Assembly: GCF_024502345.1 (NCBI RefSeq)
Contig: NZ_JALDNN010000001.1
Direction: 5' to 3' (one strand)
Length of the DNA: 64,000 nt
From: Escherichia coli
Lineage (GTDB): Bacteria > Pseudomonadota > Gammaproteobacteria > Enterobacterales > Enterobacteriaceae
The notes beneath the pieces are model-generated. The model had not been told where the DNA came from. It searched no databases and saw only the letters and a program-made list of their open reading frames with translations. Of this stretch, positions 29,984-50,670 are shown in pieces. The position numbers were made by a program, and so were the translations under genes. Each line of letters opens with the position of its first letter. Position 1 is the stretch's first letter.

Positions 29984-29999
29984 TGTAGGTTAAAGTGTA
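29984..29999. repeat. Left copy of the island-flanking direct repeat (candidate attL core), TGTAGGTTAAAGTGTA
   Basis: It matches 50655-50670 at 15 of 16 positions. It lies 107 bp upstream of the mutS ATG and ~95 bp upstream of the integrase start. It is part of a local palindrome, CCTACATTTAAATGTAGG. Confidence 0.55.
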
Positions 30000-30094
30000 G
30001 CTTGCCAACCTATAGCTTGGTAAAATATGGGCACATACAGCACAACCTATATTTATGTTCATGACTGCATAAGGTGCATGATAACGGAGTCTTT

Positions 30095-31375
30095 ATGGCA
30101 GGAAAACAAGAGGGAAAGCCACTTTCGTTTAAAGGGGTAGAAATGATGAAGCCAGGCGATAAAGATAAGGCTGATGTAGGCGAAAATCGTGGCTTACGTG
30201 TCTCCTGTGGTGCAACTGGTGTTAAGTCTTTTTTCTACCGTTACACAAGTCCTCTGACTGGCAAACTTGCTCAGGTTAAAATTGGTAACTTCCCGCAGAC
30301 TTCTCTCGCCGCTGCACGTCTTAAACTTCATGAATTAAAGCTCCTCCGGCAGGAAGGTCGGTGCCCTGCGTCAGAGCTTAAGCAAGATAAGCTCCAGCGT
30401 GCGATTGAAGCTGAACAGGCTAAGATCCCTGAATTGACCGTACAGGGATTAGTTGAACTGTATCTTACTGAACGTATTGAGGATCGTAAAACGAAGGACG
30501 GGAAGGTCATTCCCGGTGCCAGAAAACCGAAAGGACAGGCTGAGGTTCGTCGTACTCTCTATGGTGACGCTGTTAAAAGTTTAGGAACCCGGAATGCTGC
30601 TGAGATAACGCGCCAGGATGTTATTAATTTAATCAATGGCATTGTAGCTCGGGGCGCAACCGTACAGGCAGGGAATGTACTGAGAGAACTTTCACTCGCA
30701 TATGAATTTGCAATTGGACTTGGGCGCTTTGATGACAGTTTTGCGAATCCAGCGCTGTTAGCAAAATCTAGCTTACGACAGACCAGAATCAAGCTCACAA
30801 ATGGACGTGGAACACGAGTACTGAGTGAGGACGAGCTTGCAAAATTCCTTAAATGGCTACCGGGTTCGGCTTACACGCCAACGATCAAAAACGTGTTACG
30901 TCTGACTCTCTGGACCGGGTGTCGTACCGGTGAAGTCTGCAATATGGCATGGAAGGATGTTGATCTTGAAAAAGGCACCATTCATCTTAGAGAAACCAAG
31001 ACTGGAGTAGAGCGTTACGTTCAGTTATCGGATCAAGCGATCGACTTTCTCAAGGTTCTACGCCTTACCTCTGACAAATATCTATTCCCTTCACAAGCCA
31101 CTAAAAAGCCAATCCAGCAGAAGTATCTAACTGAAAACTCATGGCGTTTACGTGAAAGCGGTCAAATGCTTGATATACCTCATTGGACGCCGCATGATCT
31201 GCGTCGTACAGTACGAACGGGCTTATCTCGTTTGCAGTGTCCAAATGAGGTGGCTGAGGCCGTATTGGGGCATACACGAGGCGGTGTTGAAGGGATTTAT
31301 AATCTGTATAAGTATGATGCTGAGTGTAGGAAGTGGTTGCAGGTGTGGGCGGATTATTTAGATACTTTAACGTAA
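30095..31375 (+). CDS. int: Tyrosine site-specific integrase, P4-like (N-terminal DUF4102-type arm-binding domain)
   Basis: The ATG at 30095 has a GGAG SD. The N-terminus reads GLRVSCGATGVKSFFYRY. Catalytic residues are GCRTGE (R), HDLRRT (HxxR) and GH...Y. Confidence 0.9.
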   Translation: MAGKQEGKPLSFKGVEMMKPGDKDKADVGENRGLRVSCGATGVKSFFYRYTSPLTGKLAQVKIGNFPQTSLAAARLKLHELKLLRQEGRCPASELKQDKLQRAIEAEQAKIPELTVQGLVELYLTERIEDRKTKDGKVIPGARKPKGQAEVRRTLYGDAVKSLGTRNAAEITRQDVINLINGIVARGATVQAGNVLRELSLAYEFAIGLGRFDDSFANPALLAKSSLRQTRIKLTNGRGTRVLSEDELAKFLKWLPGSAYTPTIKNVLRLTLWTGCRTGEVCNMAWKDVDLEKGTIHLRETKTGVERYVQLSDQAIDFLKVLRLTSDKYLFPSQATKKPIQQKYLTENSWRLRESGQMLDIPHWTPHDLRRTVRTGLSRLQCPNEVAEAVLGHTRGGVEGIYNLYKYDAECRKWLQVWADYLDTLT

Positions 31376-32161
31376 TTTGCCAATTAGATGTCCAATCATT
31401 TCGTTACATCAAAGTTGTGCTTAATTTTTATTTTATAAGGATAATATGGATATTTTTTCTGGAGAATCAATTCTTTCCCAAGTCCCTGATGTCAATCATT
31501 GGTTAGCTTCTTACGGCTTGAATTCAACTACATCAAGATATAGCAGATATATCTCTTATATTGATGCTTTTTTTGAGTCGAAAGATCCCACCTCATCTGA
31601 TGGAAGAGACAAATTTGATTTATTAACCAAGTCGTATGCAGAAATTATAGAAATAGTCAGCGTTAAAAAAGCGTTTGAACATGAAAGAAGCCCCGGATTT
31701 ATTGAGCGTTTAAGTAAGGTTGTTTCTGGAGTTGATCATGTTGGTATTAAAGAACCCAGTGAGCCAAGGAATTTTCTCTACGAATTACTTATGGCTGCCC
31801 GGCTAAAAAATGCTGGCTTTATTATTGATTTTGACCAAGGAACTGATGTTGTCGCATATGGATTTGGTCGTGCTATTTTCGTTGAATGTAAACGCACAAC
31901 ATCAATAAGAGGGTTCGAATCTAATTTCATTAAAGGTGGAAAGCAATTAGAGAGAAAGTTTAAGAGTACGAAACTTCCCCATTTTATGATTCGGGGATTT
32001 ATTGCTATCGATGTTTTACCATATGTATTGAACGATATTCCTAAATTTGAAATAGATAATGAAATGGAAGCTCGCATTTGTGCCAGGATAGTGATGGAAC
32101 GTTTTAAGCAAGATGCAAGTAGGCATATTAATAAGTATATATCACGTTATGAAAATGTTAG

Positions 32162-33356
32162 GGAAGGTGCGAACAAGTCCCTGATATGAGATCATGTTTG
32201 TCATCTGGAGCCATGGAACAGGGTTCATCATGAGTCATCAACTTACCTTCGCCGACAGTGAATTCAGCAGTAAGCGCCGTCAGACCAGAAAAGAGATTTT
32301 CCTCTCCCGCATGGAGCAGATTCTGCCATGGCAAAACATGGTGGAAGTCATCGAGCCGTTTTACCCCAAGGCTGGTAATGGCCGGCGACCTTATCCGCTG
32401 GAAACCATGCTACGCATTCACTGCATGCAGCATTGGTACAACCTGAGCGATGGCGCGATGGAAGATGCTCTGTACGAAATCGCCTCCATGCGTCTGTTTG
32501 CCCGGTTATCCCTGGATAGCGCCTTGCCGGACCGCACCACCATCATGAATTTCCGCCACCTGCTGGAGCAGCATCAACTGGCCCGCCAATTGTTCAAGAC
32601 CATCAATCGCTGGCTGGCCGAAGCAGGCGTCATGATGACTCAAGGCACCTTGGTCGATGCCACCATCATTGAGGCACCCAGCTCGACCAAGAACAAAGAG
32701 CAGCAACGCGATCCGGAGATGCATCAGACCAAGAAAGGCAATCAGTGGCACTTTGGCATGAAGGCCCACATTGGTGTCGATGCCAAGAGTGGCCTGACCC
32801 ACAGCCTGGTCACCACCGCGGCCAACGAGCATGACCTCAATCAGCTGGGTAATCTGCTGCATGGAGAGGAGCAATTTGTCTCAGCCGATGCCGGCTACCA
32901 AGGGGCGCCACAGCGCGAGGAGCTGGCCAAGGTGGATGTGGACTGGCTGATCGCCGAGCGCCCCGGCAAGGTAAGAACCTTGAAACAGCATCCACGCAAG
33001 AACAAAACGGCCATCAACATCGAATACATGAAAGCCAGCATCCGTGCCAGGGTGGAGCACCCATTTCGCATCATCAAGCGACAGTTCGGCTTCGTGAAAG
33101 CCAGATACAAGGGGTTGCTGAAAAACGATAACCAACTGGCGATGTTATTCACGCTGGCCAACCTGTTTCGGGCGGACCAAATGATACGTCAGTGGGAGAG
33201 ATCTCACTAAAAACTGGGGATAACGCCTTAAATGGCGAAGAAACGGTCTAAATAGGCTGATTCAAGGCATTTACGGGAGAAAAAATCGGCTCAAACATGA
33301 AGAAATGAAATGACTGAGTCAGCCGAGAAGAATTTCCCCGCTTATTCGCACCTTCC
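32162..33356 (+). mobile_element. IS5: IS5 insertion sequence (1195 bp) with a 4-bp TTAG target-site duplication
   Basis: Terminal inverted repeats are GGAAGGTGCGAACAAG (left) and CTTATTCGCACCTTCC (right). TTAG occurs at 32158-32161 and 33357-33360. The element encodes InsH. Confidence 0.95.
32230..33210 (+). CDS. insH: IS5 transposase InsH
   Basis: 326-aa product [35 protein letters not shown]...QWERSH, matching remembered IS5 InsH. Confidence 0.96.
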
Positions 33357-49599: not shown

Positions 49600-49770
49600 T
49601 TGTTTATCTTTCTGATAATGGGGTTGTCCGTTAGCCAACCTGATATATTGCTTAAAGGGCTTGCCCGATGAGTGAGCCTTTGACGGGGCTTGATATGAAT
49701 TTGCGTAGAAGTTTTGGTATACTGTTTAAACGATGTCTTTCAGCCCAGATTCAACTTCTTAGGAGTGATT

Positions 49771-49941
49771 ATGAGCACCCACAAAAAAACTCAGGCAAGC
49801 TACGCTAAGCCATCTCGTGCTGACATTGTTCGCTCAGTAGCAACATCTACGGCTGTTGAAACAGGGCAGTCCTCCGCGAAGATCGAAGCTTCACTTGAAG
49901 CCACGCGCAAAAAATTTGCTCATTTGCGTCTTGCGGTTTAA
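49771..49941 (+). CDS. Small hypothetical protein (56 aa), possible Fic-associated antitoxin-like peptide
   Basis: The ATG at 49771 is preceded by a strong SD (AGGAGTGATTATG), with an extended -10-like TGGTATACT at 49715-49723. It contains S-x-x-x-E elements (STAVETG, SAKIEA). Its stop overlaps the stop of the convergent fic gene. Confidence 0.4.
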   Translation: MSTHKKTQASYAKPSRADIVRSVATSTAVETGQSSAKIEASLEATRKKFAHLRLAV

Positions 49942-50555
49942 TCCCTTCTTAATGCTTCTCGCACCCAGTGTTTCATCGGCTCATAGTCCATTGATATGCC
50001 AGCATGGATGGCCGATATATACTGAGTTTTGTTTTGCTCCCAGCTTTGATAATCCAGCGGTTTGTATCCTCCCTGAACGGCCATCACGTCGGCTAGCAGT
50101 CGCGACAGGCGTCCGTTTCCCTCTCTGAATGGATGGATAAGTATTATCTCTACATGGGTTATGGCGATAGCGGTGATGAGTTGTTCTTCGTCCATGCCGC
50201 TACACGGTGTGTATTGAGCCAGATACTTAGTGTCGAATTCGTTCAGCAGTTTTGGCACCTGCGCTGAGGGGGCAAACATAAAGCCGCCTTTGCTAATATT
50301 CACCGCTCTTTCTTGTCCAGCCCACTCGTAGATGTTACCTAACCAGCGGCGATGCCAGCTTTTTAGCATGGCTACGCTGAGCTGTCCTTCCGGGAACTGC
50401 TCTTCAAAAACAGACTGGTAGAGTTGTTCTAACAGGACAAGTTCAGCCTCATCCATCTCATCAGAAGTCGCAATCCCCAGCTTATTAGCCAAAACCTGCT
50501 CGCCAGAGTCTTTCTCATACTGGCCTTCACTGCTGGATACATGGTATCGGCTCAT
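49938..50555 (-). CDS. fic: Fic/DOC-family protein (putative AMPylase)
   Basis: 205 aa with the canonical Fic motif HPFREGNGRLSR. Confidence 0.88.
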   Translation of the reverse strand: MSRYHVSSSEGQYEKDSGEQVLANKLGIATSDEMDEAELVLLEQLYQSVFEEQFPEGQLSVAMLKSWHRRWLGNIYEWAGQERAVNISKGGFMFAPSAQVPKLLNEFDTKYLAQYTPCSGMDEEQLITAIAITHVEIILIHPFREGNGRLSRLLADVMAVQGGYKPLDYQSWEQNKTQYISAIHAGISMDYEPMKHWVREALRRD

Positions 50556-50654
50556 GGAGATGCCCTGTGTTATTAGAAGGAGGGGAAAACAGAGAGAGTA
50601 TAACGCTGGATGAGTACAGCAAACAATATTCTTAAAATCAGATAGTTACAAAAG

Positions 50655-50670
50655 TGTAGGTTAAAATGTA
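50655..50670. repeat. Right copy of the island-flanking direct repeat (candidate attR core), TGTAGGTTAAAATGTA
   Basis: 15 of 16 positions identical to 29984-29999. It lies between the last island gene (fic) and backbone ygbA. Confidence 0.55.

Follow-up and report, generated by a model that had tools for sequence, protein, structure and literature searches.

The stretch of Escherichia coli DNA analysed here, 64 kb in all and referred to as the window, carries next to mutS a horizontally acquired integrative island of 20,890 bp (29845-50734, the 1,195-bp IS5 counted in) at a non-tRNA site; in E. coli K-12 mutS and ygbA are neighbours. The features of the locus are collected in Table 1. Much of the initial annotation stands: a P4-type integrase lies at the left end of the island, its ATG at 30095 being 96 bp beyond a repeated 16-mer, a second tyrosine recombinase is found in the interior, an ARAGORN scan of the window is negative for tRNA and tmRNA genes, and composition is patchy, with GC of 0.36-0.45 at 31500-32500 and 43500-49500 versus 0.52-0.61 at 36500-39500 and 40500-42000.

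Table 1. Features of the mutS-linked island and its edges (window coordinates).
Feature	Position	Strand	Basis
mutS, host part (codon 15 third base to stop)	27316..29833	-	ORF list; K-12-like DNA up to core
attL core TGCATCATGGG	29834..29844	.	identical at both junctions (repeat search)
Replacement mutS codons 1-11 from island (native: MSAIENFDAHT)	29845..29877	-	sequence, K-12 alignment, MutS comparison
Island-derived mutS leader and presumed promoter region	29878..29960	-	homologous to native enterobacterial mutS leader, diverged
Candidate arm-type integrase site cluster, including left 16-mer	29972..30003	+	spacer conservation
18-bp perfect palindrome CCTACATTTAAATGTAGG, in cluster	29972-29989
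TGTAGGTT, in cluster	29984-29991
TGTAGCTT, in cluster	29996-30003
Two inverted motif copies AACCTATA (30007-30014, 30044-30051) around TAAAAT box (30021-30026)	30007..30051	+	conservation
int1, 426-aa mutS-specific tyrosine integrase, P4/lambda type, arm-binding domain	30095..31375	+	Pfam Arm-DNA-bind_3, Phage_int_M, Phage_integrase
Cargo slot 1: hypothetical gene (intact form 294 aa) broken by IS5	31446..33529	+
IS5-family insertion sequence, 1,195 bp	32162..33356	+	Pfam DDE_Tnp_1, DUF772; terminal inverted repeats
IS5 transposase	32194-33210
Two small hypothetical genes, 109 and 172 aa	33776..34620	-	kept in KL53-type and Enterobacter sichuanensis islands
Backbone, first part	34673..37721	.	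Pfam, PHROGs
175-aa protein	within 34673..37721	-
HTH_35 regulator	35213-35491	-
143-aa protein, N-terminus Mu-repressor-like	35553-35984
207-aa protein (listed between 143-aa protein and RadC/JAB)	within 34673..37721
RadC/JAB	36681-37202
DUF2787	37290-37721
Remnant ORF, 205 aa, CbtA toxin fragment fused to DUF905	37865..38482	+	Pfam CbtA_toxin, DUF905
int2, 315-aa Xer-like tyrosine recombinase, conserved backbone gene	38577..39524	+	Pfam Phage_integrase
171-aa hypothetical protein, divergent from alpA	39824..40339	-
Four GACCGTCAT/ATGACGGTC copies, orientation alternating, in promoter region shared by 171-aa gene and alpA	40379..40436	.	repeat search
AlpA-family small DNA-binding protein	40546..40752	+	Pfam Phage_AlpA
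371-aa protein, rolling-circle replication initiator (Rep_trans-like) fold	40833..41948	+	predicted fold
494-aa protein, family-A (Pol I/T7-like) polymerase fold	42302..43786	+	predicted fold
Cargo slot 2, defence genes	43923..49599	+	PADLOC, Pfam
Type I methyltransferase HsdM	43923-45458	+	PADLOC MTase_I 3e-190
Specificity subunit HsdS	45458-47143	+	PADLOC Specificity_I 8e-114
Septu PtuA	47153-48757	+	PADLOC PtuA 2e-215
Septu PtuB	48751-49599	+	PADLOC PtuB 1e-99
75-aa ORF, right end of element	within 49714..50555	+
Fic/DOC protein	49938-50555	-	Pfam Fic; PADLOC PDC-S04 1e-101
Right 16-mer with one TGTAGGTT motif, candidate arm-type site 54-69 bp from core	50655..50670	+	sequence, motif scan
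attR core TGCATCATGGG	50724..50734	.	identical at both junctions; K-12 identity starts again here
Native mutS start, now orphaned (codons 1-14 plus part of codon 15: MSAIENFDAHTPMM, 50724-50767), then native leader and promoter	50724..50850	-	K-12 match over whole aligned stretch

The gene set of the first backbone part also follows Int1 in Cedecea, Enterobacter, Phytobacter, Atlantibacter, Erwinia, Sodalis, Lonsdalea and Morganella. The NCBIfam match of Int2 is XerC/XerD-like, under the curated cut-offs, and homologues of about 38% identity occur on 1,781 plasmid records; in the remnant ahead of it, sister genomes have cbtA marked as a pseudogene (RefSeq annotation of L001). AlpA is a candidate excisionase or regulator, and in distant relatives its gene immediately adjoins the integrase; the GACCGTCAT/ATGACGGTC cluster upstream of alpA is a putative operator or origin. 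The fold matches of the Rep-like and polymerase-like proteins have low TM-scores (about 0.3) at 10-15% identity, and family searches gave no sequence-family match for either, as profile searches gave none for the 171-aa protein.

The initial annotation regarded the island as a composite or tandem element. Under a tandem or nested model, an independent Int1 element (about 29.8-38.5 kb) would be combined with an Int2 element (about 38.6-50.7 kb), each having its own recombinase. Such an origin would account for the two tyrosine recombinases, the changes of GC content along the island, the position of AlpA after Int2 instead of Int1, and the cbtA/DUF905 remnant directly before int2, a type of remnant presumably also carried by the CP4-type prophage islands of E. 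coli K-12. It is nevertheless quite improbable, as the repeat search finds only two att copies in the region and no third att-like copy between the supposed parts, and the Int1...RadC-Int2 order is repeated in Cedecea, Enterobacter, Phytobacter, Atlantibacter and Lonsdalea. The layout Int1...RadC-DUF2787-Int2-AlpA-Rep-Pol is shared as a unit by at least nine other genera and is found with a different integrase at yicC, where E. coli KFu019 has the whole block including Int2; int2 is kept beside RadC both there and in other genera. The two-recombinase layout is thus a conserved backbone and not a tandem composite. A comparable single unit of two recombinases and an excisionase is formed in the pipolins of Gammaproteobacteria (PMC11551731).

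Two cargo slots are recognized in the element, the second holding defence genes, together with a Fic module at the right end. The slot 1 gene, for which profile searches gave no family match, is unbroken in strain MSB1_9D (L001 5447-6331); here it is split by the IS5, which is flanked by a TTAG target-site duplication (32158-32161 / 33357-33360) and is missing from four islands otherwise 99.7-99.8% identical. The HsdM-HsdS-PtuA-PtuB cassette of slot 2 is also present in L004, L005 and L086; tblastn with an HsdR query found nothing in the 64-kb window, the type I system being M+S without R. Providencia and all of the E. coli variants have the 75-aa ORF/Fic right end. Genes for a relaxase, conjugation or packaging were not found in the element.

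The initial annotation placed the insertion in the mutS-ygbA intergenic region, 107 bp upstream of mutS, bounded by the 16-mers TGTAGGTTAAAGTGTA (29984-29999) and TGTAGGTTAAAATGTA (50655-50670). Both are where it located them, each near one end of the foreign DNA, and their 15/16 match is not a chance one: when the two 300-nt island ends were shuffled 300 times, the best score was 14 and 15/16 never occurred. However, the K-12 empty-site alignment, the test that the annotation itself had named, shows that each junction falls on an 11-bp core, TGCATCATGGG (29834-29844 and 50724-50734), and rules out the 16-mers as crossover sites. Because K-12-like DNA ends at 29844, within mutS codons 12-15, and resumes at 50724, island DNA lies outside both 16-mers, running ~140 bp past the left one and ~53 bp past the right one. 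The 16-mer has no copy at the K-12 empty site, and the longest direct repeat of the region, a mutS-derived imperfect 53-nt pair (29834-29886 / 50724-50776, 81% identity, spacing 20,890), stands exactly where backbone meets island sequence. In addition, the left 16-mer is invariant and the right one variable between variants, and the left one belongs to a multi-copy motif cluster with inverted copies, which fits binding sites and not crossover. An intergenic insertion between 16-bp att duplications therefore has virtually nothing left to commend it.

The insertion site lies instead within the conserved HTPMMQQ motif of MutS, the core being the reverse complement of CCC ATG ATG CA, which encodes P12-M13-M14-Q15. 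The same junctions are seen in three further E. coli variants whose integrase DNA is 89-96% identical; the only sequence common to their attL and attR is TGCATCAT, and the crossover point would lie within it. Precise excision in silico yields a 311-nt attB with two mismatches to K-12 and the native MutS N-terminus in frame, and Colwellia psychrerythraea ND2E has two att copies with 10.5 kb between them. By sequence comparison, the integrase is linked to an 8-11-bp core, TGCATCAT(GGG), which codes for the invariant P-M-M-Q motif of MutS, and integration interrupts mutS after codon 11-14. The core may be usable so widely because Met, encoded twice in it, has only one codon.

The altered mutS promoter context suspected in the initial annotation is borne out, since codons 1-11, the 5' UTR and the promoter have been replaced by the island; the polymorphic mutS-rpoS region that it invoked as context lies beyond the opposite (3') end of mutS. 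The chimeric ORF is complete (27316-29877, 853 aa), its host part being 98-99% identical to MutS of K-12 and other E. coli. Every related locus has an in-frame replacement MutS N-terminus that follows element type, not host, and MSSLEKKEQ is identical across different families. The island and native leaders align globally with a score of 7 (shuffles -10.8 +/- 4.9; 0 of 1000 reach 7), and CATAAAAAC at -51..-43 of the island leader has as its K-12 counterpart AATAAAAAC at -50..-42, the Hfq ARN1 site described among other features of the native mutS leader (PMC5580658). A consensus scan of the mutS-int spacer detected no sigma-70 promoter, and for this reason promoter activity of the island leader is presumed. 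Judged from these alignments, the element brings a mimic of the mutS 5' end, which comprises codons 1-11 together with a homologous leader and upstream DNA, and consequently keeps the chimeric mutS in frame, while the native start and promoter are stranded at the far end of the island beside ygbA, 20.9 kb from the remaining mutS.

The TGTAGGTT motif of the 16-mers is most likely an arm-type integrase binding site, a reading based on conservation and co-variation with integrase clade and on the Arm-DNA-bind_3 domain of Int1. TGTAGGT is invariant in the mutS-int spacer of 28 loci ranging from E. coli to Proteus and Providencia, and the rest of its block, like AACCTACA, is among the best-conserved spacer parts; of six TGTAGSTT matches in the 64-kb window, three are at the island ends. 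An integrase clade at 66-68% identity keeps an equivalent arrangement, direct repeats together with a single inverted one, but builds it from a different motif, GTGTAACTT. The right 16-mer is conserved less strictly than the left cluster, reading TGTAGGTTGAAATATG in KL53 and CGTAGGTT... in MB06233. AACCTACA and a TAAAAT/TATAAT box are kept throughout the 28 loci, and the inverted motifs around this box are probably the int promoter and its operator. That the TGTAGGTT repeats, which lie around this box shortly before int and have a perfect 18-bp palindrome among them, are instead operators through which an element-encoded repressor or regulator (e.g. HTH_35, AlpA) controls int and mutS transcription is unlikely: a further copy lies at the opposite element end, where no promoter is expected, and the motif varies with integrase clade, while the remaining backbone is absent from those distant elements. 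The operator and arm-site roles can coexist.

Int1 homologues at 81-99% identity occur in many Enterobacterales genera, and in 70 of 80 related loci an integrase homologue (58-99% identity) is encoded on the strand opposite to mutS, at ~215 bp from the start of that gene. The hosts of mutS-linked integrase loci extend from Enterobacterales through Aeromonas, Colwellia, Cellvibrio, Sedimenticola and Thiodiazotropha (Gammaproteobacteria), with HTPMM the joining point in every mutS concerned, and at least two unrelated integrase clades target the site in E. coli. Int1 is 97-99% identical between genera whose MutS proteins are 80-93% identical, a comparison that points to recent horizontal transfer. 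Elements of this sort were described by Chu et al. 2017 (mBio; PMC5296598) as "mobile elements within mutS", inserted at HTPMMQQ in hundreds of Beta- and Gammaproteobacteria and providing a new promoter and start. The insertion site and replacement mutS start are shared by the present island, which is very probably a site-specific integrative element of that class; PCR has demonstrated excised forms in V. splendidus 12B01, E. coli 536, P. putida F1 and B. multivorans CF2 (PMC5296598), and for the present copy excision is predicted from sequence. There is some smaller chance that the island was gained along with flanking mutS and ygbA DNA of a carrier E. coli, through homologous recombination, and may now be immobile: islands 99.7-99.8% identical occur in four other E. 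coli genomes (frogs, river water, human), recombination around mutS is known (PMC4209514), the IS5 has inserted since, and the backbone has decayed in OW1E2. However, this route is compatible with a site-specific origin of the element, and Int1, AlpA and both att sites are intact, the IS5 hitting a cargo gene only.

For the site-specific element, the TGTAGGTT repeats inside both ends would be bound by the integrase N-terminal domain, those on the int side also overlapping the int promoter. An excised circle would probably replicate via the Rep_trans-like initiator and the family-A-like polymerase, its multimers being resolved by the Xer-like Int2. The island is an ordinary new example of a kind of element already described in 2017: while integrated, it would have the chimeric mutS expressed from element DNA, and its excision, probably with the help of AlpA, would place wild-type mutS again under its own promoter and 5' UTR.

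Alignment of both island ends to the empty mutS site of E. coli K-12 places the element inside mutS, and not in the mutS-ygbA intergenic region as the initial annotation had it; the two genes are indeed neighbors in K-12. K-12-like DNA ends at 29844 within mutS and restarts at 50724, and identity to K-12 breaks exactly at codons P12-M13-M14-Q15. The longest repeat of the region is a 53-nt imperfect direct repeat (81% identical, spacing 20,890 bp), whose exact core, TGCATCATGGG, is the reverse complement of CCC ATG ATG CA, i.e. P12-M13-M14-Q15 of the MutS motif HTPMMQQ. Because the breaks in K-12 identity and the repeat core fall there, the island is assigned to 29845-50734. 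The right repeat copy is the native mutS start; the aligned 50724-50800 matches K-12, and the native leader and promoter adjoin this orphaned start. The left copy is owned by the island and encodes a replacement N-terminus, the chimeric mutS being an in-frame ORF. A simulated crossover at the core yields a 311-nt attB that differs from K-12 at two positions and has the native N-terminal codons back in frame. The mutS ATG (29877) and the int ATG (30095) lie on opposite strands with a spacing of <300 bp.

A pair of 16-mers had been proposed as the bounds of the island. These are present where they were reported, and their 15/16 match is not a chance one: when the two 300-nt island ends were shuffled 300 times, the best match was 14/16 and 15/16 was never reached. 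The empty-site alignment puts the junctions elsewhere, with the 16-mers sitting ~140 bp and ~53 bp inside the ends; the repeat observation was thus real, but misread. Other elements of the initial annotation hold: the window contains no tRNA or tmRNA gene, the island is patchy in composition and encodes two tyrosine recombinases, and the integrase ATG lies 96 bp past the left 16-mer.

Alignment of the mutS-int spacer in 28 loci, extending from E. coli to Proteus and Providencia, points to another role for the 16-mers. One of the best-conserved blocks, (A/G)TGTAGGTyrAAGTGTAGsTT, includes the left 16-mer; another, ~50 bp further, is an inverted AACCTACA, and a TAAAAT/TATAAT box lies between the two; a palindrome at the left 16-mer is also found in close relatives. 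TGTAGSTT has six matches in the window, three of them at the island ends. In an integrase clade of 66-68% identity the layout is kept and the motif differs (three direct and one inverted GTGTAACTT), and the TGTAGGTT motif is present on either side of the core, conserved and varying with the integrase clade. The integrase at the left end, Int1, has an N-terminal arm-binding domain and a catalytic tyrosine-recombinase domain as in lambda/P4-type integrases (Pfam Arm-DNA-bind_3 2.6e-11, Phage_int_M 1.2e-6, Phage_integrase 7.9e-25), and its PDB sequence matches are lambda Int and XerA. Because of this conservation and the co-variation with integrase clade, the 16-mers are probably arm-type integrase sites on both attP arms, and the int-side motif cluster probably doubles as an operator.

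Features of the mutS island and its junctions (positions in the window)
Feature	Coordinates	Content
mutS	27316-29877 (minus)	853 aa
53-nt repeat, left copy	29834-29886	attL core at 29834-29844
Replacement leader	29878-29960	
Palindrome	29972-29989	CCTACATTTAAATGTAGG
Conserved spacer block	29983-30003	
Left 16-mer	29984-29999	TGTAGGTTAAAGTGTA
Inverted block	30044-30051	AACCTATA
int1	30095-31375 (plus)	Left end of island
Cargo slot 1		Hypothetical gene split by IS5, then two small ORFs
IS5-family element	32162-33356	1,195 bp; TTAG target duplication; interrupts hypothetical cargo gene
Backbone, first part		175-aa, HTH_35 regulator, 143-aa, 207-aa, RadC, DUF2787, cbtA::DUF905 remnant
cbtA::DUF905 ORF	37865-38482	CbtA toxin fragment and DUF905 domain in a single ORF
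Backbone, second part		int2 (Xer-like, 315 aa), 171-aa, repeat cluster, AlpA, 371-aa, 494-aa
int2	38577-39524 (plus)	
Repeat cluster	40379-40436	Four GACCGTCAT/ATGACGGTC copies, alternating orientation, between 171-aa gene and alpA
371-aa gene	40833-41948	
494-aa gene	42302-43786	
Cargo slot 2	43923-49599	Type I HsdM and HsdS, Septu PtuA and PtuB
Right end		75-aa ORF, Fic/DOC protein (PADLOC PDC-S04), then attR
Right 16-mer	50655-50670	TGTAGGTTAAAATGTA
53-nt repeat, right copy	50724-50776	attR core at 50724-50734; 50724-50767 encodes MSAIENFDAHTPMM

The Septu genes of the second cargo slot are adjacent and overlapping, and both products match their PADLOC models at full length (PtuA 2.2e-215, PtuB 1.2e-99). 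The type I set consists of M and S only, a tblastn search with an HsdR query having found no HsdR anywhere in the window; the KL53-type island carries a complete M-S-DUF5655-R system, HsdR included. Septu may take over from the restriction subunit; alternatively, this could be an orphan methylase. The HsdM-HsdS-PtuA-PtuB cassette without HsdR is seen also in strain KFu019 and in loci L004 and L005, and weaker PADLOC matches within the cassette are to the MADS components mad2, mad3 and mad5. Where this island has the single cbtA::DUF905 ORF, sister genomes are annotated with a cbtA pseudogene, truncated, and with DUF905 as a gene of its own; the shift in coordinates points to a 2-bp difference from these genomes between 33400 and 38577.

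The initial annotation took the island for a composite or tandem element. There is no third att copy, the mutS-derived repeat occurring only twice in 29500-51200, and the order Int1...175-aa-HTH_35-143-aa-DUF2787-207-aa-RadC-Int2(-AlpA-371-aa-494-aa) is shared by Cedecea, Enterobacter sichuanensis, Phytobacter, Atlantibacter, Erwinia, Sodalis, Lonsdalea and Morganella. Because no third att is present and the order recurs, the two-recombinase layout is read as a conserved backbone and not as a chance tandem insertion. In KFu019 (NZ_CP091700.1 4683095-4700134) the same backbone and M-S-PtuA-PtuB lie at the yicC 3' end, which is also the site of MGIVflInd1 and MGIVmi1, together with a different P4-type integrase; this yicC island thus shares backbone and cassette with the mutS island and differs from it in integrase and att site. 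The backbone block and cassette are found again in CP088398.1. The occurrence of the same backbone at mutS and at yicC shows that the integrase module is exchangeable between att sites, and the island, judged from gene order, is an exchangeable integrase joined to a conserved backbone with two cargo slots. The backbone in CP088398.1 (25679-35888) stands beside P2-like tail genes, a retron Ec67-type reverse transcriptase and dhaR; the record, 377 kb long and typed as a plasmid, may be chromosomal DNA that was wrongly assigned.

Two of the backbone proteins, of 371 and 494 aa, gave nothing informative in Pfam, PADLOC, NCBIfam and PDB sequence searches, and the sole PHROGs match of the latter is to a family without known function; information came from fold comparison alone, which predicts Rep-like (Rep_trans) and Pol-like (family-A polymerase) folds, respectively. 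The repeat cluster ahead of alpA looks like an operator or origin. For the second recombinase, Int2, a role as an hsdS-shuffling invertase is rejected, there being one hsdS only, ~6 kb off. An MpsA-like atypical relaxase received no supporting family match, and the many plasmid homologues of Int2 are no less in keeping with a Xer-like resolvase than with an MpsA-like relaxase. [quoted passage not shown] A phage satellite of P4-like or PICI type is likewise unsupported, with no capsid, packaging or primase family detected.

In its architecture the backbone resembles the gammaproteobacterial pipolins (Mateo-Caceres and Redrejo-Rodriguez 2024; PMC11551731); these, like the island, are two-module defence islands with a conserved core and variable defence cargo. 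The pipolin core likewise has an integrase near att, DUF2787, orphan genes and, along with an excisionase, a second tyrosine recombinase; both kinds of element are without known conjugation or phage genes and both have a DNA polymerase of their own, here as a predicted fold. Unlike pipolins, the island targets mutS and not a tRNA gene, and has a family-A-fold polymerase-like protein together with a Rep_trans-like protein; the pipolin hallmark piPolB (family B) had no match among the island ORFs in Pfam, and of other pipolin core features no WYL domain was detected while two recombinases, AlpA and DUF2787 are present. It is conceivable, if on present evidence rather doubtful, that the backbone (HTH_35, RadC, DUF2787, Int2, AlpA, the Rep_trans-like protein and the family-A-like polymerase) defines an undescribed family of self-replicating rolling-circle integrative elements, a family-A counterpart of pipolins that swaps integrase modules (mutS, yicC, possibly others) and carries defence cargo. 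Such a family, if real, could explain some of the 'integrase-only' E. coli defence islands that Hochhauser et al. are said to have described in 2023, reportedly with their mobility unexplained.

The Int1 lineage is found in 13 of 5,426 complete E. coli genomes, always adjoining mutS. Four of the 13 carriers have islands 99.7-99.8% identical to the present one, from which the 1.2-kb IS5-family insert, absent there, is the only large difference; these are ES10, KMi029, ET490 and MSB1_9D. The diverged variants of KL53, MB06233 and OW1E2 have the same junctions and also in-frame replacement N-termini, with attL and attR sharing only TGCATCAT. Beyond the species, Int1 protein homologues 81-99% identical occur in Klebsiella, Salmonella, Citrobacter, Serratia, Enterobacter, Yersinia, Erwinia, Pantoea and others; Int1 is 97-99% identical across genera whose MutS is 80-93% identical, pointing to recent transfer. 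Among 80 loci taken as the best genome matches, one genome per species (integrase identity 58-99%), 70 have the mutS start ~215 bp upstream of the integrase on the opposite strand, the remainder being mostly on contigs too short to judge; no Vibrio locus is among these 80. All mutS genes at these loci join at HTPMM, and the residues ahead of it track element type and not host; MSSLEKKEQ, for instance, is shared without change by Sedimenticola, Thiodiazotropha, a Pseudomonadales MAG and a Solemya symbiont. Within the 10-kb flank covered by the attR search, both ends were seen only in E. coli loci and in Colwellia psychrerythraea ND2E, where the two att copies lie 10.5 kb apart. At 9500-10010 of a Yersinia sp. 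HM-2024 locus (L021, NZ_CP170755.1), an Int1 homologue and a replacement mutS start are followed by only the MMQQY codons of mutS, and the genes on the left are unrelated. Rearrangement, use of a secondary site and a tandem junction are all possible readings of this locus.

The E. coli site is occupied more widely than by Int1 elements: a 500-bp K-12 probe over the core is unbroken in 5,234 of 5,418 genomes and split in ~184 (3.4% of complete E. coli genomes). A second integrase clade, 25% identical to Int1, is present at the same mutS motif in strain CMZE087 and matches ~76 E. coli genomes, which suggests independent targeting of the site. The CMZE087 integrase (L088, NZ_CM192158.1; 4358-6040) is a 487-aa tyrosine integrase 147 bp from mutS, joined at HTPMMQQ. 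The cargo there comprises a UvrD-family helicase and an ATP-dependent nuclease, which, going by annotation, we take to be Gabija-like.

Elements of 4 to >150 kb at the MutS HTPMMQQ motif were described in hundreds of Beta- and Gammaproteobacteria by Chu et al. (2017, mBio; PMC5296598). These elements place an integrase beside mutS, provide the gene with a new promoter and start, and leave the native start orphaned. PCR demonstrated their excision, which in V. splendidus 12B01 leaves a 2-bp scar that gives a hypermutator, and in E. coli 536, P. putida F1 and B. multivorans CF2 leaves none. The present island shares with these the motif at the mutS 5' end, the integrase <300 bp from mutS, the supply of a new start and upstream region with the native start orphaned at the far end, and a site used across Gammaproteobacteria with signs of horizontal transfer. 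Unlike in 12B01, attL and attR here have an 11-bp core in common, and precise excision should therefore leave no 2-bp scar. The backbone and cargo (type I M and S, Septu, Fic, Rep-like, Pol-like) are absent from the description of Chu et al. By its site and layout the island belongs to this known 'within mutS' class. At least two unrelated integrase clades use the E. coli site; four integrase clades targeting mutS were reported by Mageeney et al. (2020). What is added here is the exact junctions, the 16-mers as probable arm-type sites, a census of the E. coli site, a conserved backbone with predicted Rep- and Pol-like folds, and evidence for integrase exchange between mutS and yicC.

Conserved housekeeping genes are targeted at their 5' ends also by dusA-specific elements such as IMEVchUSA3 and by ICE SXT at prfC (PMC8409611), from which the island differs in target gene and integrase family. 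SpyCI of S. pyogenes likewise lies at the start of a mismatch-repair gene, the mutL 5' end, and can reportedly switch its expression by excision and re-integration (PMC3430984); unlike SpyCI, whose integrated state silences mutL and gives a mutator, the island keeps mutS intact when integrated. In Salmonella, an SPI-1 analysis described fhlA-mutS as a hotspot without apparent tRNA site, phage integration site or repeat element (PMC7232297) and did not take up the mutS start as an integration target, shown earlier by Chu et al. (2017); S. Newport has an island with integrase and type I restriction-modification genes between invH and mutS (PMC3569456).

In K-12, mutS has a 74-nt 5' UTR with an Hfq-binding (AAN)3 (ARN1) site at -50 to -42 and an ArcZ pairing site at -26 to -18, which reduce MutS in stationary phase and increase mutagenesis (PMC5580658). 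In this strain the native leader, with both sites and the promoter, lies 20.9 kb from mutS. The replacement leader is a diverged homologue of the native one (1520-1593 of the K-12 empty site, L002), 0 of 1000 shuffles reaching the alignment score; it has an A-rich CATAAAAAC at -51 to -43, the Hfq ARN1 position, one base off the strict motif, so that no strict (ARN)3 match at -50 was found, and its ArcZ region differs from the native. The A-rich stretch at the ARN1 position and the leader homology suggest a mimic captured from an earlier enterobacterial host. A sigma-70 consensus scan of both junction regions, the mutS-int spacer included, found no promoter, and those of mutS and int are therefore presumed. 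While integrated, the element would have mutS, a key gene of mutation avoidance, run on control sequences that it supplies, and excision would return mutS to its native controls. For annotation, island boundaries at mutS fall within the gene, and a MutS N-terminus off the species norm marks an integrated element. Because the native Hfq/ArcZ leader has been moved away and element controls substituted, carriers and other E. coli may not be alike in their stress-induced mutagenesis.
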